Shown: positions 21,458 to 32,276, numbered from the stretch's first letter. The stretch: 64,000 nucleotides of DNA from an uncultured Acidobacteriota bacterium (GCA_963770895.1 CAVYRF010000001.1:768001-832000); one strand, 5' to 3'. Notes: a model not told the origin generated them from the sequence alone. A program made the numbers and translations.

Positions 21458-22099
21458 GTGCCGCTGCTCGCGCTGGCCGCGGTGGCGGCGATCCGCGCGC
21501 TGCGCTCGACCGTCCGGGTGCGCCACCACGGCGCCGCCGCGGTGCGCGCCCGCGAGGCGGCCGGCCAGCGCTTCATCCTCGCCTTCTGGCACCGCCACCT
21601 GCTGCTGATGCCCTACGCCTACCGCGGCCGGCGCATCTCGGTGCTGATCAGCCGCAGCCGCGACGGCGAGCTGATCGCCCGCACGGTGGCGCGCTTCGGC
21701 ATCGACGCGTCGCGCGGCTCGAGCAGCCGCGGCGGCGCCGCCGGCCTGCGCGACCTGCTGCGCAAGGCCGCCGCGGGCTACGACCTGGCGTTCACCCCGG
21801 ACGGACCGCGCGGCCCGGCCGGCGTGGTGCAGCCCGGCGTGATCCTGGCGGCGGCAGCCACCGGTCTGCCGGTCTTTCCGGTCGCCATCGCCGCCTCGCG
21901 CTGCCGCCGCCTGCGCTCGTGGGACCGCTTTCTGGTGCCGCTGCCGCTCGCGACCGTCCACATCGTCTACGGTGAAGCCTTCAACGTCCCTCGCGGCGAG
22001 GCGCGGGCGCCGGACGCCGCCGCCGCCGAGCTGGGCCGCCGCCTGGACGGCGCCGCGGCACGCGCCGAGCTGCTGGCGGGCCATGGCAGCGACGGATGA
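21458..22099 (+). CDS. Lysophospholipid acyltransferase family protein (DUF374)
   Basis: AFWH, SRSRDGE, RGSSSRGG, TPDGPRGP and SWDRF motifs. Confidence 0.88.
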   Translation: MPLLALAAVAAIRALRSTVRVRHHGAAAVRAREAAGQRFILAFWHRHLLLMPYAYRGRRISVLISRSRDGELIARTVARFGIDASRGSSSRGGAAGLRDLLRKAAAGYDLAFTPDGPRGPAGVVQPGVILAAAATGLPVFPVAIAASRCRRLRSWDRFLVPLPLATVHIVYGEAFNVPRGEARAPDAAAAELGRRLDGAAARAELLAGHGSDG

Positions 22100-22211
22100 C
22101 GAACCGTGCGCGGGACTCGGACGGAGGCGGCCGCCGCCGCGCGGGCGGCCGGCGCCAACCGCCGCACAGGCCGCTGCTTTAAACCAGCTTTCGATGGATG
22201 GGAGAACGACG

Positions 22212-23087
22212 ATGCGGAGCATGACCGGGTACGGCGAAGCGAGCGGGCGCAGCGAACGGCGCGCCGTCACGGTGGCGCTCAAGGCGGTGAATCACCGCTT
22301 CCTGGATCTCCAGGTGCGCCTGGGCGACGAGCTGCGGGCGAGCGAGCCGGCGCTGCGCGAGGCGCTGTCGCGCGAGCTGGCGCGCGGCCGCGTGGAGGCG
22401 CGGGTGGAGGTGCGCGCGGCAGGGGAGCGCGGCCAGGTGGAGATCGACCTGGGGCTGGTCAAGGCGGTGCAGGCGGCGGTCGGCGCGCTGGTGGCGGAAG
22501 GGGTGGTGGCGTCAGGCCTGACCGCGGGCGACCTGCTGCGCCTGCCGGCCGTGCTGCGGGTGGAGAGCGCGGCCGCCGGCTGGGACGAGCGGGACGACGA
22601 GCTGCTGCTGGGCACCGCCGCGGCGGCGGTCGCGCAGCTGGTCGCCGGGCGCGAGGCGGAGGGCGCCGGCCTGGCGGCGGCGCTGGGCGAAAGGCTGACG
22701 GGGATCGGCGCGGCGGTGGAGCGCCTGGACGCCTTGCGCGGCCCGGCGCTCGAAGAGACCGCCGCCGCCCTGCGCCGGCGGGTCTCCGAGCTGCTCGCCG
22801 GGCACGAGATGGACCCGGCGCGCATCGCCCAGGAGGTGGCGCTGCTCGCCGACCGCGGCGACGTGAGCGAGGAGATCGATCGCCTGCGCTCGCACCTGGA
22901 GCATTTCCGCGCCGTGGCCGGCGGCGCCGGGGCGAGCGGCAAGCGGCTCGACTTCCTCACCCAGGAGATCTTTCGCGAGCTCAATACCCTGGGCGCCAAG
23001 TGTCGCAACGCCGAGATGATCCGCTGCGTCCTGGACGCCAAGGTGCTGTGCGAGCAGCTGCGCGAACAGGTGCAGAACGTGGAGTAG
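22212..23087 (+). CDS. yicC: YicC/YloC family endoribonuclease
   Basis: MRSMTGYG, VNHRFLD, EEIDRLRSH, GKRLDFLTQE..RELNT and EQLREQVQNVE. Confidence 0.95.
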   Translation: MRSMTGYGEASGRSERRAVTVALKAVNHRFLDLQVRLGDELRASEPALREALSRELARGRVEARVEVRAAGERGQVEIDLGLVKAVQAAVGALVAEGVVASGLTAGDLLRLPAVLRVESAAAGWDERDDELLLGTAAAAVAQLVAGREAEGAGLAAALGERLTGIGAAVERLDALRGPALEETAAALRRRVSELLAGHEMDPARIAQEVALLADRGDVSEEIDRLRSHLEHFRAVAGGAGASGKRLDFLTQEIFRELNTLGAKCRNAEMIRCVLDAKVLCEQLREQVQNVE

Positions 23088-23215
23088 CAGGGGCAGGGGG
23101 CCGCGTGCGGGGGCCCCGCGGGAACCGGCGCCGCGAACCTGGCGACCTGCCGCCATGTCCCCCGAGCCGGCGCCCGCGGCGCCTGCTGTTGCCGGTAAGC
23201 CTGTCTGGCAGGAGC

Positions 23216-23362
23216 CTACGGGCAGATCTCGACGCAGGAAACCACCTGCGTCGGGCACCACGGGTGGGTGGTGGCGGCCGCCGCGATTCCGGCCAGGCTG
23301 GCGGGGTCGAGCCGGTTGAGGGTTTCGCGGTGCAGGCGGATGCGCTGGATCTGCTTCTTCAT
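23216..23362 (-). CDS. Putative lanthipeptide-type RiPP precursor, 48 aa (MKKQIQRIRLHRETLNRLDPASLAGIAAAATTHPWCPTQVVSCVEICP); absent from the ORF track
   Basis: Translated by hand; RBS AAAGGAG 6 bp upstream of ATG; IxLxRETL leader motif; Cys/Thr/Ser-containing core. Confidence 0.75.
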   Translation of the reverse strand: MKKQIQRIRLHRETLNRLDPASLAGIAAAATTHPWCPTQVVSCVEICP

Positions 23363-23520
23363 GGTCTTCTCCTTTGGTTGTGGAACCGTCTACCCATCAG
23401 ATTGCAGCGAATGGTTCAATGCGTGACAATCCAGGTGCTGGACGACGGCAGCGGCGCCGGCGCGGGGGGCGGGGCACCGGCGAGGAGCGCCGCCGGCGGC
23501 GTGGTAGCATCCAGAAGCAA

Positions 23521-24183
23521 GTGAACGATCCAACCCCTCGTCGCGGCGACCTGTTCATCCTCTCCGCCCCGTCCGGCACCGGCAAGACGACGCTGATCCG
23601 CGGTCTCTTGGAAGGGCCGATGCACGGTTGCGCGGAGCTGGCGTTTTCGGTCAGCCACACCACGCGCGCGCCGCGCACCGGCGAGGTCGACGGCCAGGAC
23701 TATTACTTCGTCGACTCGGCGACGTTCCAGTCGATGGTGGCGGCGGATCTCTTTCTGGAGTGGGCGGAGGTGCACGGCAATTTCTATGGCACCGCGCTCG
23801 CCGAGGTGATGCCGCGCCTGGAGCAGGGGATGGACGTGTTGCTCGATATCGACGTGCAGGGGGCGGCGCGCGTCGTCGCCCGCCACCCGGCGGCCTACAG
23901 CATTTTCGTGATGCCCCCCAGCTACCAGGTGCTGGCGCGGCGCCTGGCGCGGCGCGGCCTGGACGATCCGCAGTCGATCACCCGCCGGCTGGCCACCTCG
24001 GCCGTCGAGATGGAGCGCTGGAACCGGTACAACTATGTAATAATCAACGATGACGCCGCTCGCGCGAGCGAGGCCCTGGCCTCAATCATCCGCGAAAAGC
24101 GTTACCGGCAGGACTCGATGCGCAGCCGGGTGCAGAGCATCCTGAAAGACTTCCAAGAGCGGGGCGACCCGCAGACCCTGTGA
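23521..24183 (+). CDS. gmk: Guanylate kinase
   Basis: SAPSGTGKTT, SVSHTTRAPR, EWAEVHGNFYGT and DIDVQGA. Confidence 0.96.
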   Translation: MNDPTPRRGDLFILSAPSGTGKTTLIRGLLEGPMHGCAELAFSVSHTTRAPRTGEVDGQDYYFVDSATFQSMVAADLFLEWAEVHGNFYGTALAEVMPRLEQGMDVLLDIDVQGAARVVARHPAAYSIFVMPPSYQVLARRLARRGLDDPQSITRRLATSAVEMERWNRYNYVIINDDAARASEALASIIREKRYRQDSMRSRVQSILKDFQERGDPQTL

Positions 24184-24261
24184 CTGGAACCGGAAAACCC
24201 GTCCGGCCTGAAAGCGGCGGCGCCCGCGATCTCTGTTCGCGCCGCCTGGGAGACCGTTTGC

Positions 24262-24519
24262 ATGGATGAGAGGAACACCGATCGCGCCCCCGAGGTGGAC
24301 AGCAAGTTCCGCCTCGTGCTGGTCGCCGCCACCCGCGCCGAGCAGCTGATCCGCGGCGCCCGCCCCAAGCTGGACAACGCCAGCAAGCGCAAGTCGACGC
24401 GTCTGGCGATGGATGAGGTCGCCAGCCACCTGGTGGAATGGGGCTACGGCCCGCCGCCGCAGCCCGAACCGGCCCCCGAAGCCGCGGCCGAGGAGCAGCC
24501 GGCGGCGGAAGTCCACTAG
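24262..24519 (+). CDS. rpoZ: RNA polymerase omega subunit
   Basis: DSKFRLVLVAATRAEQL; gmk-rpoZ-coaBC synteny. Confidence 0.92.
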   Translation: MDERNTDRAPEVDSKFRLVLVAATRAEQLIRGARPKLDNASKRKSTRLAMDEVASHLVEWGYGPPPQPEPAPEAAAEEQPAAEVH

Positions 24520-24595
24520 CGGCCCGGCCGGTGGATCACACGGTCCGCCGGCCAACAAGCCCACCCACCGCCTATCTATCGATCGTCCGGCGGCC

Positions 24596-25888
24596 ATGAT
24601 GAGCACCACCGCGTCGCCGGCCGATCCTTCGCCAAGCGCGCCGCCGCCCCCCTTGCACGTGCTGCTGGGGGTGAGCGGCGGCATTGCCGCCTTCAAGGCG
24701 GCCGAGCTGGTGCGCCGCCTGCGCGCCCGCGGCCATCACGTGCGCTGCGCGCTGACCCGCCACGCCGCCGCCTTCGTCACCCCCCTGACGCTGGAGGTGC
24801 TGAGCGGCCATCCGGTGCATGGCGAAGAGTACCTGCAGGCCGGCCCGGCGGGGGCGCAGGGCGAAGAAGCCCACATCGCCGCCGCCGCCTGGGCCGACGT
24901 GCTGTGCGTCGCGCCGGCCACCGCCAACCTGCTGGCCCGCCTGGCGCTCGGCCTGGCCGACGACTTTCTGTCGACCGCCGCGCTCGCCTTCGCCGGTCCG
25001 CTGGTGGCCGCTCCCGCCATGCACAGCACCATGTGGCGCCAGGCGGTGATGCAGGAGCACGTGGCGGCGCTGCTGCGCCGCGGCGTGCGCCTGGTGGGAC
25101 CGGTCGAAGGGCCGCTGGCCTCGGGAGAAACCGGCATCGGCCGCATGGCCGAACCCGACGCCATCGTCGCCGCGATCGAAGCGGCCGCCCGTGCCGCTGT
25201 CACCGCCGGCTCGCTGCGCGGCCGGGCGGTGCTGGTCACCGCCGGTCCAACGCATGAACCGCTCGATCCGGTGCGGTTCCTGGGCAACCGTTCCAGCGGC
25301 AAGATGGGCTTCGCCCTCGCCGCCGAAGCGGCGCGGCGCGGCGCCGGCGTCACCCTGATCGCCGGGCCGGTGGCGCTGGCAACGCCCGCCGGCGTGCGGC
25401 GCATCGACGTCACCACGGCGGCCGAGATGGCGGCGGCGACCCGCGGCGAAGCGGCGCGCGCCGACATGATCGTGATGGCGGCGGCAGTGGCCGATTTCCG
25501 TCCCCTCCAGGTTGCCCCCGCCAAGATCAAGAAGTCGCAGGGCGGCCTGCAGGCGATCGAGCTGGCCGAAAACCCCGACATCCTGGCCAGCCTGCGGCAG
25601 GCGGCGCCGGCCGCCCTGCTGGTCGGCTTCGCCGCCGAAACCGAGCAGCTGGAAGCCAACGCCCGCCAGAAGCTGGCAGCCAAGGGCGCCGACCTGCTGG
25701 TGGCCAACGACGTCTCGCGTCGCGACATCGCCTTTGGCAGCGAAGCCAACGAGGTGACCGTCTACCGTCGCACCGGCGACCCGATCTTCCTGGCGCGCCG
25801 GCCCAAATCGGAGATCGCCGGCGCGCTGCTCGACCTCTTCGCCGCGGCGCTGCCGCCGCCGGCCGCCGCCGCGGGTCCAACAGGCTGA
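24596..25888 (+). CDS. coaBC: Phosphopantothenoylcysteine decarboxylase/ligase
   Basis: GVSGGIAAFK, APATAN, PAMH, TAGPTHEPLDPVRFLGNRSSGKMG and VGFAAET. Confidence 0.97.
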   Translation: MMSTTASPADPSPSAPPPPLHVLLGVSGGIAAFKAAELVRRLRARGHHVRCALTRHAAAFVTPLTLEVLSGHPVHGEEYLQAGPAGAQGEEAHIAAAAWADVLCVAPATANLLARLALGLADDFLSTAALAFAGPLVAAPAMHSTMWRQAVMQEHVAALLRRGVRLVGPVEGPLASGETGIGRMAEPDAIVAAIEAAARAAVTAGSLRGRAVLVTAGPTHEPLDPVRFLGNRSSGKMGFALAAEAARRGAGVTLIAGPVALATPAGVRRIDVTTAAEMAAATRGEAARADMIVMAAAVADFRPLQVAPAKIKKSQGGLQAIELAENPDILASLRQAAPAALLVGFAAETEQLEANARQKLAAKGADLLVANDVSRRDIAFGSEANEVTVYRRTGDPIFLARRPKSEIAGALLDLFAAALPPPAAAAGPTG

Positions 25889-26751
25889 TGCCCCTTATCC
25901 CCAACGACGATCCGGCGGCCCTGGCGCAGCTCCTGGGCTACCTCGACGAGATCGGCTACGGCGAGCTCTACCTGGGGCGGCCCGCCGGCACCCCCGCGGC
26001 GGCGCCGGGCAACGCCGGTGGGCGCGGCCCCGACCCTGCTGCCGGCGCCGATGCCGATGCCGCCGCGGCCGCCCTGCGCGCCGTGGCCGACCTGGCGGCG
26101 GCCGCCCGCGACGCCACCCACGCGGGCGAAGGCGCCGGCGAGCCCGCGGCCGCCGCCTCCGGCGAACCCCTGCCCGCGGCCGGCGACGCGCCGGCGCGCG
26201 CTGCCGCTCTGGCCGCCCTGGCGGAGGTGGTGGCGCCCTGCCGGCGCTGCCGCCTGTGCGAAGGCCGCAACAAGACGGTGTTCGGCTCCGGCGACCCCGA
26301 CGCCGACCTGATGTTCATCGGCGAAGGGCCGGGCGCCGAAGAAGACCGCCAGGGTCTGCCCTTCGTCGGCCGCGCCGGCGAGCTGCTGACGCGCATCATC
26401 GAGGCGATCGACATGACGCGGCAGCAGGTCTACATCGCCAACATCGTCAAGTGCCGGCCGCCCGGCAACCGCGATCCGCAGCCCGACGAAGTGACCGCCT
26501 GCCGTCCCTACCTCGAAAAGCAGATCGCCTTGGTGCAGCCGCGCTTTCTGGTGGCGCTGGGCCGCATCGCGGCGCAGACCCTGCTGGGCACCGACATGCC
26601 GATCGGCCGCATGCGCGGCCAGTGGTTCCAGGTCTTCGGCGTGCCGACCATGGTCACCTACCACCCGGCGGCGCTGCTGCGCAATCCCGCCCTCAAGCGC
26701 CCGACCTGGGAAGACATGCAGCAGGTGCGCGACCGCCTGCGCACGCCGTAA
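25888..26751 (+). CDS. Uracil-DNA glycosylase, family 4
   Basis: [30 protein letters not shown] and TYHPAALL. Confidence 0.95.
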
Positions 26752-26786: not shown

Positions 26787-27581
26787 ATGACGATGCCTGC
26801 CTCGGACGTGCTCGGCGAACCGCTGCACGGACTGTTCGTGCTGCTGGGGACGGCCGTCGCCATGCTGGCCTTCGCCGCTGCGGCGCGCCGCAAGGTGCTG
26901 ACCGAAGACGTGGTGGTGCTGCTGGCGGGAGCCCTCGCCGGCGGCGCCCTGGGGTCGAAGCTGGCGGTGCTGTGGCGGTACCTGGACAGCGCCGCGGCGC
27001 CTTCGCCCTGGGGCCTTTTGGTCAGCGGCGGCCAGAGCGTGCTGGGCGGGTTGTCAGGAGCCTATCTGGGAGTGGTGCTGACCAAGCGCCTGATCGGCTA
27101 TCGCGCCGGCACCGGCGACCTGTTCGCGCCCGCCGTGGCCCTGGGGATCGGCATCGGCCGCATCGGTTGCCTGCTGACCGAACCTCCCGGATCGCCCACC
27201 GGCGGCAGCTGGGGAGTGGTGGTGGACGCGGCCAGGGCGGCGCGGATCGCCGGCTTCCCGCCGCGCTGGGTGGGTGTGCCGCTGCACCCGTCGTTCCTCT
27301 ACGAGATTCCCTTTCACCTGGCGATGGCGGTCGTGCTGTTGCATCTGCGCGCCCGCGGCGCCCTGCGCGGCGAGCTCTTCACGCTCTACTGCCTGGCCTA
27401 CGCGCCGGTGCGCTTCCTGCTTGAGTTCGTGCGCGGCAATCCGGTCGTGTGGCACGGCCTCACCCGCTCGCAGCTGTTCCTGATCCCCGCCGCCGCGGCG
27501 CTTGCCGTGAGCTTCGGGCGCCGGTGCCGCAAGGTGCCGCCGCCGTTCAACGCCGCCCTGGAGGTACCCGCGGATGCCTGA
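26787..27581 (+). CDS. Prolipoprotein diacylglyceryl transferase (Lgt) family protein, atypical
   Basis: GRIGC, LHPSFLYE and RFLLEFVR motifs; the HGG motif appears as SVLGG. Confidence 0.8.
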   Translation: MTMPASDVLGEPLHGLFVLLGTAVAMLAFAAAARRKVLTEDVVVLLAGALAGGALGSKLAVLWRYLDSAAAPSPWGLLVSGGQSVLGGLSGAYLGVVLTKRLIGYRAGTGDLFAPAVALGIGIGRIGCLLTEPPGSPTGGSWGVVVDAARAARIAGFPPRWVGVPLHPSFLYEIPFHLAMAVVLLHLRARGALRGELFTLYCLAYAPVRFLLEFVRGNPVVWHGLTRSQLFLIPAAAALAVSFGRRCRKVPPPFNAALEVPADA

Positions 27582-27861
27582 ACAACCGACCGCCCAGCAA
27601 GGTTCCGGCAGTGGAGCCGTCCGCATCACCTGCAGCATTCTGCTCATTCTCCTGGCGGTGGGGATCTTCCTGTTCGGCACCTGCCTGGGGCTGCTCGCAA
27701 ACTCCAACCACGCCGACCCGCGGAACATATTTTTCTTTCTTGGCGCCGGCCTCGTCGCTCTCGTGCTCATCGGCCTGGCGATCGCCTGGCTGGTCATCGG
27801 GGCAAAGCGCGCGCGCCAGCCGCCCCTGGACCACCCTGACGAAAGGAATCTCCGGCAGTAG
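27574..27861 (+). CDS. Small two-helix membrane protein with FLFGTC motif
   Basis: Overlaps the Lgt-like stop; two hydrophobic helices. Confidence 0.7.
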   Translation: MPEQPTAQQGSGSGAVRITCSILLILLAVGIFLFGTCLGLLANSNHADPRNIFFFLGAGLVALVLIGLAIAWLVIGAKRARQPPLDHPDERNLRQ

Positions 27862-27879
27862 CCGGCGGAGGTCTCACCG

Positions 27880-29472
27880 ATGCCTGGCATGCCTCTGCGC
27901 GGCGACCGCTTGCTTCGCTACGTTTCGGCCTTCTGCCCCCACTGCCACGCCGAGGAGCCGGAACGGCCGCTCGCGGACGTGCGGCGGCTGAGCGGCTACC
28001 TGGTGGCGGAGCAGGGTCAGGTGTGGCTGGTGCGCGGCTGTCCGCAGCACGGCCGCGTGCGCACGTTCTACGACGAATCGGCCGAGATCCTGGCCTACCT
28101 GGAAGAGTGGACGGCTCCAACCAAGCGCCACACCGCCGACACGGCCGGCAACTTCGATCCCATACCCCTGGCCTATCTGCGCGGGCTGCCCGAAATGCAG
28201 ACGCAGCACACCTGCATCCTGCTGCAGGACATCGACCTGTCGTGCAACCTCTGCTGCCCCAACTGCTTTGCCGCCAGCTCGCCGCAGCTGCGCGGCGTGG
28301 TGCCGATCGCCCAGGCGCTGCAAAGCCTCGACGCACGGCTGGCGCGCGAGGACGGCTGGCTCGACGTGCTGATGCTGTCGGGGGGCGAACCCACCTTGCA
28401 CCCGCAGCTCCTCGACCTGCTCGACGCCGTGCTGGAGCGTCCCGTCGGGCGCGTCCTCCTCAACAGCAACGGCATCGCCATCGCGCAGGACGACCGGCTG
28501 CTCGCCTACCTGGAGCGCCACCGCAAGCGGATCGAGGTCTACCTGCAATTCGACGGCTTCCGCGCCGAAACCCATCGCTACCATCGCGGCGCCGACCTGC
28601 GGCGGATCAAGCAGCTGGCCGTCGAGCGGCTGTCCGCTGCCGGCGTGTTCACCACCCTCACCATGACCGCCTCGCTGGGGGTCAACGACGACGAGATCGG
28701 CGACGTGGTGCTGCATGCGCTGGACACGCCCTTTGTCGGCGGAGTTTCGATCCAGCCGCAGTTCGGCAGCGGCCGCGCCACCGCCATCGACTCGCTGCGC
28801 CGGTTGACGCACACCGGCGTGCTGGCCCGGCTTGGGCCGCAGACCGACGGCGTGGTCACCTGGCGCGACCTGACGGCGCTGCCGTGCAGCCACCCCCACT
28901 GCTGCAGCATCGGCTACCTGATCCAGACCGATTCCGGCGCCTGGCGCTCGCTCACCGCGCTGCTCGGTACGGAGCAGCTGAAGAACCACCTGCAGCTGGT
29001 GAGCAACCGCATCGTGGCGCCCGATCTCACGGCGGAGCTGCGGGCCCTGCTCAAGTCGTCGCTGCTCGGCCTGCTGTCGGAGGCCAGCTCGCTGGCGCAG
29101 CCGGCGATCGGCGAGCTCTTCCACAACGTCTGCCGCAGCTGCGACCTGGGGCTGACAGACCTCCTGCGCCTGGCCGGCGGCGCCCTGACGGGCCGCGACG
29201 AAGCGCTGCGCAACCTGCTCGGCAGGCGGGTGAAGCGCATTACGGTCAAGCCCTTCATGGACATCCAGACCATGATCGAAGAGCGCTTGATGCAGTGCTG
29301 CGTTCACGTCGCGACCGCCCGCGACCAGCCCGGCACCCCGGCGGACGCCCACCAGTGCGTTCCCTTTTGCGCTGCCCAGGCCTGGCCGGAGCTCAGCCGC
29401 GGCAAGCTCGCCGAACGGGCGGGCCGGCGGCCCGAACCGGCCGCGGCGGTTCCGTACCAGGTGCCGCGATGA
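27880..29472 (+). CDS. Radical SAM protein with N-terminal CxxC..CxxH and C-terminal Cys-rich extensions
   Basis: CNLCCPNC, SGGEPTLHP, YLQFDG, CPHC..CPQHG, QCCVH and VPFC; RBS GGAGG. Confidence 0.92.
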   Translation: MPGMPLRGDRLLRYVSAFCPHCHAEEPERPLADVRRLSGYLVAEQGQVWLVRGCPQHGRVRTFYDESAEILAYLEEWTAPTKRHTADTAGNFDPIPLAYLRGLPEMQTQHTCILLQDIDLSCNLCCPNCFAASSPQLRGVVPIAQALQSLDARLAREDGWLDVLMLSGGEPTLHPQLLDLLDAVLERPVGRVLLNSNGIAIAQDDRLLAYLERHRKRIEVYLQFDGFRAETHRYHRGADLRRIKQLAVERLSAAGVFTTLTMTASLGVNDDEIGDVVLHALDTPFVGGVSIQPQFGSGRATAIDSLRRLTHTGVLARLGPQTDGVVTWRDLTALPCSHPHCCSIGYLIQTDSGAWRSLTALLGTEQLKNHLQLVSNRIVAPDLTAELRALLKSSLLGLLSEASSLAQPAIGELFHNVCRSCDLGLTDLLRLAGGALTGRDEALRNLLGRRVKRITVKPFMDIQTMIEERLMQCCVHVATARDQPGTPADAHQCVPFCAAQAWPELSRGKLAERAGRRPEPAAAVPYQVPR

Positions 29473-29855
29473 CCGGCGACACCGGCGCTCCCTCGCCGGC
29501 GAGCTCCGAGCTGAGCGCCGCCCGCCGCGCCCGCGCCGTGCAGCAGGCGCTGGCCGCCGCGGGCGAGCTGCCGCAGCCAGCGCCGCGACCGGCGGTCCGC
29601 GACCCATTGCCGCTCTGTATCTACGCGACCGTCGCGCTGCTTGCCTGGTTTTTCTCACCCGCCCTGGTGGCGGCGCTGTTCGCGCTCGCCGGCCTGCGCG
29701 CCTATGCCGTGGCGTACAGGGCCGGCTTGCGCAAGAGCGACTGCGTCCTGGGCGATCCGCGCTGGGTGATGCTCTACCTGGGAGTGGTGGCGACCTGCGG
29801 CCTGGCCTGGACTGGTTGGAAGCTGTGGGCGATCGCCGGCGCATGGCACGGCTGA
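29469..29855 (+). CDS. Small membrane protein
   Basis: ATGA overlap with the radical SAM stop; DPLPLCIYATVALLAW..SDCVLGDPR; about three hydrophobic segments. Confidence 0.7.
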   Translation: MTGDTGAPSPASSELSAARRARAVQQALAAAGELPQPAPRPAVRDPLPLCIYATVALLAWFFSPALVAALFALAGLRAYAVAYRAGLRKSDCVLGDPRWVMLYLGVVATCGLAWTGWKLWAIAGAWHG

Positions 29856-29942: not shown

Positions 29943-30548
29943 ATGGCACCCGACGATGCAGCGTCCCACTCGTCGGATTTTGATCAATTTCTGAAGGCGA
30001 TGGGGCCGCGCATCAAGCGGCTGCTGGCGGCGCACCGCATTCCCCCCGAAGACGCCGAAGACGTGCTGCAGCAGGCGTTGCTCGCCCTGGTGCCGCAGTG
30101 GACGTCGATCCGCGAACCCGAAGCCTGGTTGACCGTGACGCTGCAACGGCACTGTTTCATGTACTGGCGCAAGACCCGCCGGCGGCTCTATTCGGCGGTC
30201 GACGCGGCGCTGCTGGAATTCCTGTCGCAGCCGGTGGCGCCGCAGCAGGAGCGCGACGGCCTGATGCTCGACCTGCAGGGCGTCCTGCAACGCCTGCCGG
30301 TGCGCTGCCGGCGTTTGCTGGACCTGCGCTACGCCCGCGGCTACGATCCGCCCGAGGTGGCGCGCCAGCTCGGCTATCGCCAATCGAGCATCGGCAAGGT
30401 GACGGCCCGCTGCCTGGCGGCGCTGACGCGCGAGCTGCTCCTGGCGCAGCCCCGCCGCGCCGCCCGCAACGCTGCCGCGGACGGCGGCGCCGCCCGCCGC
30501 CGCCGCCCCGCCGCCCCTCGCCACCTGCGAGAGCCGTTCATTCCCTGA
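29943..30548 (+). CDS. ECF-type RNA polymerase sigma-70 factor
   Basis: DAEDVLQQ..EAWL region 2; LQRLP..LRY..EVARQLG region 4 HTH. Confidence 0.85.
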   Translation: MAPDDAASHSSDFDQFLKAMGPRIKRLLAAHRIPPEDAEDVLQQALLALVPQWTSIREPEAWLTVTLQRHCFMYWRKTRRRLYSAVDAALLEFLSQPVAPQQERDGLMLDLQGVLQRLPVRCRRLLDLRYARGYDPPEVARQLGYRQSSIGKVTARCLAALTRELLLAQPRRAARNAAADGGAARRRRPAAPRHLREPFIP

Positions 30549-30617
30549 CGCCAACGCACGCCGGACCTGGGCGTGGGGCATGCTGCCGCGCGCCGGGCTG
30601 CCGGCGGACGGCCGACG

Positions 30618-32276
30618 ATGAAACTCGCCACCCACCTGCTGCCGCAAGCCGAACGGCTGACCGGGCGCATCGAAAGGCTGGAGGCGCCGCTGGTGCAGCT
30701 GTGGGGTTGGCCGGGCAGCGGCGGCGCCGGCGTGCTGCAGGCGTTTCTGGCGCGGCCCGACGCGGTGGGTCTGGCGCTCGCCGACTTGGCGGACCCCGAG
30801 GCGGCCCGCACCGCGTTCGCCGCCGCCGCCGCCGGCGCCGCCCGCTGGCTGGTCCTGGCGGGCGATCCGGGCGAGCGCGCGGCGGAGCTGGTGCGCTGGC
30901 TGCGCCCGCAGCAGCAGCTGGTCTTCGCCAGCACGCGGCGGTGGACCGACCTGCCGCAGCAGGTGGCGCTCATCCCGCCGCAGGAGCTGCTGCTGACCGC
31001 CGCCGAGGTGGGGCGCCTGTGGTACCTGATGACCGGACGCCAGCCCGGCAGCGCCACCCTCCAGGCCCTGGCCAAGGCCAGCGACGGCTGGTACCGCCCG
31101 CTGCGCCTGGCGATCGAGGCGACCGGCGGCGCCGGCCTGGACAGCGCCAGCCCCGACCGGCTGCTGGAAATCGCCGAAGTGCGGCTGTTCCTGCGTCACG
31201 AGATTCTGGACCTGCCGCCCGCCGCAGACCGCGACCTGCTGCTGGAGGCGCCGCGCGACCGCCCGCCCGCCGCGCAACAGGGCGCCTGGGAGGTGGTGGA
31301 GCGGCGCGGTCTGTGGGTCGAGGGGCAGGACCGCGACCGCCTGCCGGCGCTGCTCACCGCCTACCTGGAGCGCGAAAAGCGCCGCCGGCCCGCCTCCCCC
31401 CAGGCCTCCCTCCAGGCCACCGCCACCGCCGCCGCCGCCGCTGCCGGCGCCGCCGCCGGCCGGGGAGCCGCCGCGCGTGGGCGCAAGCGGCAGCGCGAGC
31501 CGCCGGCCGGCGCCGCGTACCAGGTGCGCCTGTTCGCCGCGCCGGTGGTGCGCCAGATCGCCGACGGCCAGGTGCGCGACGTCACCTGGTCGCTGCGCCG
31601 GTCGTTTCTGGTGTTGGCGTTTCTGGCCTCCTCGCCCAACCTTTCAGCGGTGCGCGAAGATCTTGAGGAAGCGGTCTGGCCGGCCGACGGCGAGCACACC
31701 ATCGACCGCAACTTCCATCCCACCCTGAGCCACCTGCGCCGCTCGCTGGAGCTGTCGGCGGCGCGCTCGTCGTCGGCCAGCCCGTTGCTCTACCGCGCCG
31801 GCAGCTACCGTCTCAATCCCGAGATCGAGTGGGACATCGACGCCCAGACCTTCCAGAAGCGCATCGAAGAGGGGCGCGACCTGGCTGCCGCCGGCGACCT
31901 GCCGGCCGCCGCCGAGGCCTGGCGGCGCGCCTGGAAGGTGTACGGCGGTCCCTTTCTGCAGGGCCACTACGAAGCCTGGACGGTGGCGCGACGCGAAAGC
32001 TACCAGAGCCAGTACGTCGAGCTGCTGCGCAGCCTGGGCGACCTGTCGGTGCGCCTCGATCACGCCGTCGACGCCCTGGACGCCTTCCGTGCCGTACTGT
32101 TCGAAGACCCGCTGCAGGAGCGCACCCACCTGGCGGTGATGCGCCTGTACGCCGGCCAGGGGCGGCGCGACCTGGTGCGCCGCCAGTACGAGCGCCTGTG
32201 CACCCTGCTGCTCGACGAGCTGGGGGTCGAGCCGCTCCCCGAAACCGTGCAGGAATACCACCGCCTGATGAGTTAG
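30618..32276 (+). CDS. Bacterial transcriptional activator domain (BTAD/SARP-like) regulator with degenerate MalT-like N-terminus
   Basis: wHTH (VWP..NFHPTLSHLRR..YRLN) and BTAD (YGGPFL, DPLQE..MRLY..ELGVEP). Confidence 0.85.
   Translation: MKLATHLLPQAERLTGRIERLEAPLVQLWGWPGSGGAGVLQAFLARPDAVGLALADLADPEAARTAFAAAAAGAARWLVLAGDPGERAAELVRWLRPQQQLVFASTRRWTDLPQQVALIPPQELLLTAAEVGRLWYLMTGRQPGSATLQALAKASDGWYRPLRLAIEATGGAGLDSASPDRLLEIAEVRLFLRHEILDLPPAADRDLLLEAPRDRPPAAQQGAWEVVERRGLWVEGQDRDRLPALLTAYLEREKRRRPASPQASLQATATAAAAAAGAAAGRGAAARGRKRQREPPAGAAYQVRLFAAPVVRQIADGQVRDVTWSLRRSFLVLAFLASSPNLSAVREDLEEAVWPADGEHTIDRNFHPTLSHLRRSLELSAARSSSASPLLYRAGSYRLNPEIEWDIDAQTFQKRIEEGRDLAAAGDLPAAAEAWRRAWKVYGGPFLQGHYEAWTVARRESYQSQYVELLRSLGDLSVRLDHAVDALDAFRAVLFEDPLQERTHLAVMRLYAGQGRRDLVRRQYERLCTLLLDELGVEPLPETVQEYHRLMS

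Follow-up and report, generated by a model that had tools for sequence, protein, structure and literature searches.

Why should a bacterium that already has an Lgt keep a second, divergent copy, and why should that copy stand beside a radical SAM (S-adenosylmethionine) enzyme that resembles a coupler of lipid tails? These questions are raised by positions 26,787 to 29,855 of a 64,000-nucleotide (nt) stretch of DNA from an uncultured Acidobacteriota bacterium (GCA_963770895.1, CAVYRF010000001.1:768001-832000), which as a whole is called the window below. Four genes follow one another here, encoding an Lgt paralog (LgtL), a two-helix membrane protein (p95), a radical SAM enzyme of the Tes/GDGT-MAS type (rSAM), and a further membrane protein (p128). 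Lgt (prolipoprotein diacylglyceryl transferase), which moves diacylglyceryl from phosphatidylglycerol onto the lipobox Cys of many prolipoproteins, is regarded as a housekeeping enzyme with a single job and as an antibiotic target, and Tes as an archaeal tetraether enzyme. The comparisons presented here show that some bacterial Tes-like enzymes, falling in two subfamilies, are tied both to an Lgt paralog and to a Cys-bearing membrane protein of their own. The combination is kept across several bacterial phyla, and what it does seems to be undescribed. Our preferred reading, to which we give a little less than an even chance, is that the four genes work together as one self-contained unit in the membrane, whose product is a small membrane protein with a special lipid modification.

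Conservation of the Cassette

How widely is this combination kept? A scan of species-representative genomes with rSAM listed the 79 loci on which the counts below are based; more matches exist, so that there are at least 79. The loci come from Acidobacteriota (mostly Thermoanaerobaculia), Actinomycetota, Chloroflexota, Gemmatimonadota, and one Rhodothermales metagenome-assembled genome (MAG), and the Actinomycetota carriers include Mycobacterium/Mycolicibacterium, Nocardia, Nocardioides, Actinoplanes, Microbacterium, Acidimicrobiia, and others. By tblastn, LgtL adjoins the rSAM gene in 75 of the 79, upstream on the same strand in 72 cases, downstream in two, and upstream on the opposite strand in one. 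In the four loci without a match, the rSAM gene begins 163-894 nt from the start of the available DNA, so the place where LgtL would lie is cut off. The linkage of the two genes, on which the first-pass annotation of this DNA had leaned, is thus conserved. As for other neighbors, homologues of the uracil-DNA glycosylase and of the BTAD regulator that flank the cassette in the window were found by tblastn in none of the 79 loci and that of its sigma factor in one, and an all-against-all clustering of open reading frames (ORFs) returned no other neighbor family in more than 10 of the 79.

In the window's class, 150 other genomes yielded close orthologues of rSAM (76-80% identity) in two cases, both from the window's own family. 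In the family of Mycolicibacterium llatzerense an orthologue is present in 13 of 201 sampled genomes, counting the query genome and an unpublished one (G224). A FastTree phylogeny of 77 rSAM sequences mostly groups the phyla, and it sets Thermoanaerobaculia beside Oscillochloris-type Chloroflexota. Recent transfer across phyla was considered as the main pattern and is not supported, because the tree requires five label changes against a minimum of four; within groups, though, the distribution is patchy. No fusion of Lgt with the radical SAM enzyme was found in searches of longer proteins with rSAM and with LgtL, which gave one non-fusion match each; this is weak evidence, and a fusion of the two, at ∼800 amino acids (aa), would belong to the "near" length range, in which the best 120 of 4433 matches were listed.

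The Lgt Paralog

LgtL is a member of PF01790 (101.8 bits; gathering cut-off, 24.9), and it scores below the cut-off of the NCBIfam equivalog TIGR00544 (65.9 against 118.9). Against the Escherichia coli Lgt of structure 5AZB, phmmer returns an E value of 2.7e-5. The AlphaFold 2 (AF2) model (predicted local distance difference test, pLDDT, 86.2) is a seven-helix membrane transferase with the Lgt fold: 5AZB is its sole match in the Protein Data Bank at E ≤ 0.001 (E 8.8e-6; template modeling score, TM-score, 0.57/0.54).

Is the active site still there? Residues R125, G135, E173, Y205, R209, E213, and R216 of LgtL align to R143, G154, E202, Y235, R239, E243, and R246 of 5AZB and are invariant or nearly so among 73 orthologues, and E132 is invariant but stands one column ahead of E151. 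In all 73 sequences R125, C128, E132, Y172, E173, Y205, R209, E213, and R216 are unchanged, and 69 aligned sequences share 19 invariant columns. The roles of R143, E151, G154, E202, Y235, R239, E243, and R246 are those given by Mao et al. (2016, PMC4728403), according to whom the active site of Lgt opens at the outer face. By this alignment, LgtL is predicted to retain the phosphatidylglycerol-binding and catalytic network.

Three other columns have changed. Where E. coli Lgt has Y26, H103 (in HGGL), and N146, the alignment to 5AZB places H14, L86 (in S-V-L-G-G-L), and C128, which are kept in 70, 71, and 73 of the 73 orthologues; the Cys of the GRIGC motif is the residue in the N146 column, and SVLGG lies on H103GGL. 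HGGL has been proposed as the motif that holds the lipobox peptide (PMC4728403). The first-pass annotation had singled out the missing His as the atypical feature of this protein. The replacement of HGGL by SVLGG is real, but the residue also varies in Lgt at large: H103 is not universally conserved according to a 2026 mBio paper (PMC13251419), and the other Lgt of the host genome has Tyr at this column. That second gene, on contig C2, scores 160.5 bits with PF01790 and 97.7 with TIGR00544, likewise below the cut-off of 118.9; it has Phe at the Y26 column and, like LgtL, Cys at the N146 column, so that N146C is not the distinguishing mark of LgtL. Given that H103 is not universal and that the contig C2 protein combines N146C with H103Y, the changes specific to the LgtL family are Y26 to His and HGGL to LGGL.

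LgtL is therefore not the sole Lgt of its genome, and a better-scoring one lies elsewhere. The same holds in five other cassette genomes, each of which has exactly two PF01790 matches, one of 95-128 bits at the cassette and one of 168-225 bits elsewhere; a separate, higher-scoring Lgt is thus present in six of the six cassette genomes checked, the window's included.

A side observation concerns the outward-facing loop after the signature motif, which carries a C-P-x-C pair in 46 of the 73 orthologues. This loop reads F-P-x-x-W in Thermoanaerobaculia, including the window (27255-27266, residues 157-160), and is deleted in the Nocardioides clade. The C-P-x-C pair may be redox-active and hold an acceptor thiol in the reduced state.

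The Tes-like Radical SAM Enzyme

In the Pfam scan, rSAM matches PF23545 (the HMPTM/MJ0619 zinc ribbon), PF04055 (the radical SAM core), and, weakly, PF13353; no SPASM/twitch or RRE domain was detected by the same scan. The top NCBIfam models are TrsS (177.9 bits; cut-off, 490) and Tes (137.9 bits; cut-off, 450), both below cut-off. Residues 34-482 align to GDGT-MAS (7TOL; phmmer E 6.6e-30), and the AF2 model (pLDDT 81.6; predicted TM-score, pTM, 0.86) matches 7TOM and 7TOL in Foldseek with TM-scores of 0.66-0.74 (for 7TOM, E 1.4e-29 and 0.70/0.74), whereas the next matches cover the core only, with TM-scores of ∼0.33, the maturases of RiPPs (peptides made on the ribosome and modified after translation) among them at 0.30-0.34. 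As modeled, rSAM is a whole-length structural homologue of GDGT-MAS/Tes, an enzyme that couples lipid tails.

The gene is single-copy in the host genome, and 145 of its 530 codons specify residues that never vary among 77 sequences drawn from several phyla. These include a rubredoxin-like zinc ribbon, C19-X2-C22...C54-X2-H57, and the radical SAM motif C122-X3-C126-X2-C129. The extra Cys clusters noticed in the first reading of the sequence correspond to this N-terminal CX2C...CX2H and to further groups in the Cys-rich C-terminal half, where C336, C341, C418, C421, C473, C493, and C497 are invariant and new relative to GDGT-MAS. One motif of the archaeal enzyme is absent. In GDGT-MAS, C73-X3-C77-X2-C80 together with a His binds an N-terminal auxiliary [4Fe-4S] cluster (PMC9433317); the aligned stretch of rSAM is free of Cys, and H110 and C112 alone follow it.

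The G-x-C Membrane Proteins

What, then, is the small protein encoded between the two enzymes? Taken alone, p95 is anonymous: it has no Pfam match above cut-off and no match at all in NCBIfam, its Atlas clusters are unnamed, and tblastn finds it at none of the 79 loci. Its first hydrophobic helix ends in IFLFGTC (residues 31-37), as had been seen at the outset, with the G-T-C (G35, C37) at the outer end. Neither G35 nor C37 varies among the five sequences from the window's clade; there G-x-C closes helix 1, and a second helix and 56-81 residues follow the Cys.

The other loci are also furnished with small membrane proteins. In 53 of the 72 collinear loci, LgtL and rSAM are separated by 291-3225 nt that contain small membrane-protein ORFs, and in loci with a short gap, ORFs of this sort are often found upstream of LgtL or downstream of p128. 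These G-x-C proteins, one to three per locus, are polytopic, 66-260 aa long, and unalignable beyond a last hydrophobic helix that ends in G-x-C. Whereas the rSAM enzymes of the loci are 56-81% identical, the G-x-C proteins are too divergent to be detected outside the motif. Tandem sets of two or three copies occur at several loci (L007, L011, L054, L055, and L061), and five of the proteins that were scanned have no Pfam or NCBIfam match above cut-off.

To avoid start-codon artefacts in G+C-rich DNA, the motif was counted from stop codons, in 119 ORF tails with at least two transmembrane (TM) helices on the operon strand within the cassette zone. A loose motif, [GAS]-x-C after a hydrophobic stretch, is present in 86 of the 119 tails and in 67 of the 79 loci, with locus L012 in addition. 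In this loose set Gly occupies position -2 in 79 of 86, the Cys lies 4-15 residues from the C-terminus in 76 of 86, and the residue preceding it is mostly bulky (L 18, V 16, F 13, and I 8 of 86; A 14). The strict motif, with Gly at -2 and Cys 4-15 residues from the C-terminus, is found in 74 of the 119 tails and in 63 of the 79 loci, against one of 57 controls (none of 16 tails on the same strand outside the zone, none of 15 on the opposite strand inside it, and one of 26 on the opposite strand outside it). The Cys motif that had been remarked in p95 is thus conserved among the small neighbors in about 68 of the 79 loci, far above chance. On this evidence p95 is the putative window version of a hypervariable G-x-C membrane protein.

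The orientation of the motif can also be proposed. Lys and Arg amount to 0.202 per residue ahead of the last helix and to 0.017 behind the Cys, and at least one of them precedes the helix in all 74 proteins. Because the basic segment comes before the helix and not after the Cys, the helix is predicted to run N-in/C-out, with the Cys towards the outer face, where Lgt has its active center (PMC4728403).

As a separate observation, many acidobacterial and Chloroflexota G-x-C proteins open with a conserved soluble domain of ∼45 aa that has no family match. Its consensus is L-x-x-Y-L-R-x-H-x-x-x-Y-S-L-x-A-L-R-x-x-L-x-x-x-G-Y-D, and examples are, among others, L006:5523-5990, L009:5496-5936, L017:2798-3280, and L059:4752-5303. 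The domain is lacking in p95, and the mycobacterial proteins have N-termini rich in Pro, Tyr, and Gln in its place.

The p128 Family

Of the 79 loci, 64 have the fourth component downstream of rSAM; 12 of the 15 misses are mycobacterial and three are at contig ends. Its core of ∼80 residues reads D-P-x-x-x-C ... Y-x-[RK]-A-x-R-x-G-L-x-x-S-x-C-x-L. C50 belongs to D-P-x-x-x-C, where the first hydrophobic segment begins, and is invariant in 65 of 65 aligned rows; C92 belongs to S-x-C-x-L, within a basic loop, and is invariant in 64 of 65. A profile search of 1.84 billion representatives gave 173 matches, all of 45-328 aa. Neither Pfam nor NCBIfam has a match for p128, its Atlas clusters are named only "hypothetical protein", and two orthologues likewise fall in no family above cut-off. 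By these searches, p128 is a narrow, unnamed, conserved family with two invariant Cys residues, and we infer that it serves the soluble rSAM enzyme as a partner in the membrane.

A Second Lgt-Linked Subfamily

The pairing is not confined to the family of the window. A second Tes-like subfamily occurs in seven further genomes of the 150 sampled from the window's class, with an identity to the window's rSAM of 36-38% in the genome-sample search and 31-34% by tblastn. In the four loci of this subfamily listed in Table 1, an Lgt-like gene directly adjoins that of the radical SAM enzyme in four of four, and in three of four a protein of 104-119 aa with three TM helices, ending in G-[IV]-C-G-x(8-9), follows. 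Members of this subfamily keep a cluster motif, CPYDCGLCPDH, that is absent from the window's rSAM, and they score 309-320 bits with TrsS (cut-off, 490) and 257-265 bits with Tes (cut-off, 450), below both.

What Might the Cassette Do?

What is conserved is the set of LgtL, a Tes-like enzyme, and a small membrane protein bearing one lipobox-like Cys, joined in most loci of the window's subfamily by p128. Because a separate Lgt is present and both the gene linkage and the Cys motif are conserved, the locus is best read as a dedicated pathway whose target is a small membrane protein with a Cys. The first-pass annotation had suggested such a pathway in the form of a "lipo-RiPP". The dedicated pathway stands; the RiPP part does not, because rSAM has no detected SPASM or RRE domain and is homologous to GDGT-MAS over its whole length, so that it is not a RiPP-type maturase.

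How would such a pathway run? At the outer face of the cytoplasmic membrane, LgtL would do what Lgt does, and its acceptor would be the single conserved Cys of the G-x-C protein of the cassette, which would serve as an uncleaved, non-canonical lipobox built into that protein. That HGGL, the proposed peptide-binding motif, has become LGGL fits a changed acceptor. The part of rSAM is more tentative. This enzyme would be cytoplasmic, probably docked to the membrane via p128, and might carry out radical chemistry on the hydrocarbon tail of a lipid, either the donor phospholipid before transfer or the Cys-linked diacylglycerol; a tail-to-tail C-C coupling of the GDGT-MAS type is an example. The end product would be a protein with a remodeled lipid, which could be cross-linked, macrocyclic, or membrane-spanning. 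A bolder version can be put forward, in which LgtL puts diacylglycerol on the internal, uncleaved G-x-C and rSAM welds its tails either together or to a lipid in the other leaflet, leaving the protein stapled to a macrocyclic or membrane-spanning lipid; in this specific form we consider the proposal unlikely.

Several points weigh against a lipid-modified protein as the product. Y26, H103, and N146, all reported as essential or critical in E. coli Lgt, are all replaced in LgtL as aligned. For the second Lgt homologue in Mycobacterium smegmatis, MSMEG_5408, which shares Y26H and N146C with LgtL, the description given is "presumed low Lgt activity" (PMC13251419). As rSAM lacks the N-terminal CX3CX2C of GDGT-MAS, its chemistry may differ. 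No G-x-C protein was found within 1.6 kb in 11 of the 79 loci, six of them from Gemmatimonadota, and LgtL looks intact there. The invariant Cys residues of p128 could make this protein the real target. Last, the acceptor Cys is predicted at the outer leaflet and radical SAM enzymes work in the cytoplasm, which makes access of rSAM to a Cys-linked lipid a difficulty; one way round this conflict of topology would be for rSAM to remodel the donor phospholipid first and for LgtL to transfer it afterwards.

Could the product instead be a free lipid? LgtL and the Tes-like enzyme would then make or remodel a cross-linked, macrocyclic, or membrane-spanning glycerolipid of the membrane, with LgtL moving diacylglyceryl or a headgroup between lipids and the small proteins acting as scaffolds, anchors, or regulators. 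The whole-length likeness of rSAM to a lipid-tail-coupling enzyme speaks for this, as do the capacity of GDGT-MAS to bind ordinary phospholipids (PMC9433317), the 11 loci with no visible G-x-C protein, and the statement in PMC13159169 that the iso-diabolic acid enzyme of aerobic Acidobacteria is unidentified. Such a pathway leaves unexplained why a lipobox-like single Cys should be the sole conserved feature of otherwise unalignable small proteins, and why these should come in tandem copies. The distribution argues against it as well, since the cassette is found in mycobacteria, Nocardioides, and Actinoplanes and is rare in the window's own class. These three groups are not known for membrane-spanning lipids. 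Altogether, we regard a free lipid as an unlikely product. The narrower candidate of iso-diabolic acid synthesis was rejected on the same distribution, namely two of 150 other genomes of the class and the presence of the cassette in mycobacteria and Nocardioides.

A protein target for the radical chemistry is the next possibility. In either p128 or the G-x-C protein, a Cys or a residue next to it might be converted by rSAM (to a thioether, or by methylation or cross-linking), and LgtL might act separately or simply hold the protein. Here the two invariant Cys residues of p128 would be well placed, flanking the first hydrophobic segment next to a basic, probably cytoplasmic loop; the cluster-binding Cys pattern of rSAM is unlike that of GDGT-MAS; and the GDGT-MAS mechanism itself proceeds via a carbon-sulfur bond (PMC9433317). 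Against these stand the lack of any detected SPASM, RRE, or other peptide-recognition domain in rSAM, fold matches to RiPP maturases that are limited to the core and lie far below those to GDGT-MAS, and the 12 mycobacterial loci that have no p128 and retain the remaining cassette. We judge this possibility to be quite unlikely.

The cassette might also be a RiPP-like factory of lipopeptides, in which the 4-15-residue C-terminal tail starting from the Cys would be released after lipidation as a signal or antibiotic and the hypervariable part would serve as leader. The small proteins do look like precursors, being hypervariable around one conserved site, present in one to three tandem copies, and mostly ending in a short variable tail. 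No conserved protease or exporter emerged in the cassette from the ORF clustering, however, and in the window's clade a whole second TM helix and a long segment follow the Cys. The mostly bulky residue before the Cys is a further obstacle, as such residues are ill-suited to signal peptidase II. A lipopeptide factory is thus distinctly improbable. Finally, LgtL might be a second Lgt that serves ordinary lipoproteins, redundant or in decay, and its neighbors might be unrelated. This is in line with its clear family membership, its substrate-binding Arg residues, and a speculation on redundancy between the two M. smegmatis homologues (bioRxiv 10.1101/2025.01.07.631728), but is very improbable in view of the linkage to rSAM across phyla, the 19 invariant columns, the same arrangement in the second subfamily, and the excess of the strict motif over controls.

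Locus Anatomy and Setting

ORF calling confirmed the four same-strand genes of the first-pass annotation in their coordinates and in both overlaps (Table 1), which measure 8 nt between LgtL and p95 (27574-27581) and 4 nt, ATGA, between rSAM and p128 (29469-29472). The LgtL motifs then listed, GRIGC, HPSFLYE, RFLLEFVR, and SVLGG, are likewise all present. A coding-type GC pattern is seen in four of four frames, with G+C at third codon positions (GC3) of 0.80-0.91 and at second positions (GC2) of 0.45-0.62; the value for p95 is a GC3 of 0.80. GGAGG precedes the starts of p95 and rSAM, in the former case at 8 nt. A scan for promoters and terminators at the cassette returned nothing usable. The window has a G+C content of ∼70%, and the host genome comprises 8.16 Mb in three contigs. 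The region 21972-26751 holds what we take to be a housekeeping run, yicC-like, guanylate kinase, rpoZ, and coaBC-like, with names read from the translations, and then the uracil-DNA glycosylase gene. Neither these genes nor the sigma factor and regulator on the other side are conserved neighbors in the 79 loci.

Table 1. Positions of the cassette genes, their neighbors in the window, and the Lgt-like/Tes-like pairs of the second subfamily
Feature	Position	Strand	Remark
LgtL (Lgt paralog, 264 aa)	26787-27581	+	ORF call
p95 (two-helix membrane protein, 95 aa)	27574-27861	+	ORF call
rSAM (Tes/GDGT-MAS-like radical SAM enzyme, 530 aa)	27880-29472	+	ORF call
p128 (membrane protein, 128 aa)	29469-29855	+	ORF call
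Family-4 uracil-DNA glycosylase (UDG)	25888-26751		preceding side of cassette
Extracytoplasmic function (ECF) sigma factor	29943-30548		after cassette
BTAD regulator	30573-32276		next after sigma factor
Second Lgt-like/Tes-like pair	L085:5450-7903	-	
Second Lgt-like/Tes-like pair	L087:5115-7490	-	
Second Lgt-like/Tes-like pair	L088:5376-7797	+	
Second Lgt-like/Tes-like pair	L086:4793-7304	+	

Two details of other loci may be recorded. Nocardioides-type loci have, beyond the cassette, a further conserved small membrane protein that is free of Cys and carries the motif W-H-R-D-H-P-x-F-x-x-L-x-G-F-F-x-G-L (L069:8199-8723, L070:7076-7444, L073:7857-8516, L074:7085-7612, L079:4450-5139, and L084:7941-8648). 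In one MAG (L030:2459-7975) the cassette looks disrupted or duplicated: the LgtL match is partial, a gap of 3.2 kb follows, the rSAM match covers 407 residues, and a 665-aa ORF begins as rSAM and continues in another frame.

Significance

The combination of genes described here opens several avenues. Counts of Tes homologues in bacteria should not be taken as a measure of tetraether potential without a check of the neighboring genes. Branched tetraethers, for which bacterial Tes homologues have been proposed, are used in palaeoclimate work. Second homologues of Lgt, such as the Y26H/N146C type of M. smegmatis, may serve a dedicated substrate rather than provide a weak redundant activity. Bacteria common in soil and freshwater may contain a lipid-protein conjugate of a new kind, made from three or four genes. 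If the stapled-lipid proposal were true, it would give the Tes fold its first job in bacteria and would explain the "second Lgt" of fast-growing mycobacteria.

How do these points relate to the literature? A search of full-text literature found no paper that links Lgt with Tes or with a radical SAM enzyme, and the supplementary homologue tables of the Tes papers could include this family. The headings of a 2026 review of lipid-modifying radical SAM enzymes (PMC13459092) are Tes, Mss, Gms, GrsA/B, Gmm, Cds, HpnH, HpnJ, HpnP/R, Jaw5, and ladderane, with none for an Lgt-linked enzyme. Bacterial Tes homologues were proposed for branched tetraethers by Zeng et al. (2022, PMC8941075), and Tes homologues are missing from diabolic-acid producers according to Sahonero-Canavesi et al. 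(2022, PMC13159169).

Comparison with Known Systems

The closest known relative of LgtL is E. coli Lgt (5AZB/5AZC), with which it shares family, fold, and the residues of the network. The presumed acceptor Cys of the cassette also ends an N-in/C-out helix that comes after basic residues, as in a lipoprotein signal peptide. LgtL differs in Y26 to His, H103 to Leu, and N146 to Cys, in a signature motif that is one residue shorter, in its sub-cut-off score with TIGR00544, and in having a Tes-like companion. The candidate acceptor departs from the lipobox consensus (PMC12462473) by its Gly at -2 and its mostly bulky residue at -1, and from lipoproteins in general by standing near the C-terminal end of a small polytopic protein and not in an N-terminal signal peptide.

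The Y26H and N146C pair has been described in MSMEG_5408 (PMC13251419) and corresponds to H14 and C128 of LgtL. Mycobacterial and Mycolicibacterium loci carry the cassette.

With GDGT-MAS/Tes (MJ0619; 7TOL, 7TOM; NF045702), rSAM shares sequence and fold over the whole length, the CX2C...CX2H and CX3CX2C motifs, and the FMD and CC-x-H motifs of the C-terminal domain. It differs by the absent N-terminal cluster motif, the seven new invariant Cys residues, and the score of 137.9 bits against a cut-off of 450. The hosts differ too: those of rSAM are bacteria with ester lipids and a paired Lgt paralog, and archaea, where Tes joins the phytanyl tails of ether lipids, are described as being without Lgt (PMC12462473). 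TrsS (NF045646) is the best-scoring NCBIfam model for rSAM, but below its cut-off, and the gene in the window has no in-frame stop codon, whereas TrsS is an uncharacterised radical SAM (seleno)protein, entered in a table of a selenoproteome review (PMC13188914) that in this entry says nothing on function.

For the proposed step on the lipid tail, a model that works in a like manner is Mss of Thermotoga and Clostridia, a radical SAM enzyme that couples the acyl tails of phosphatidylglycerol-type lipids with a Tes-like catalytic architecture (PMC13274423) and that is remotely related to Tes and confined to anaerobes (PMC13159169). The accounts of Mss in these two papers mention no Lgt partner. 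Finally, the G-x-C proteins differ from the substrates of radical SAM RiPP systems in being polytopic membrane proteins of 66-260 aa and not short soluble peptides. What the cassette shares with those systems is an adjacent, hypervariable, and often multi-copy protein with a conserved candidate site of modification.

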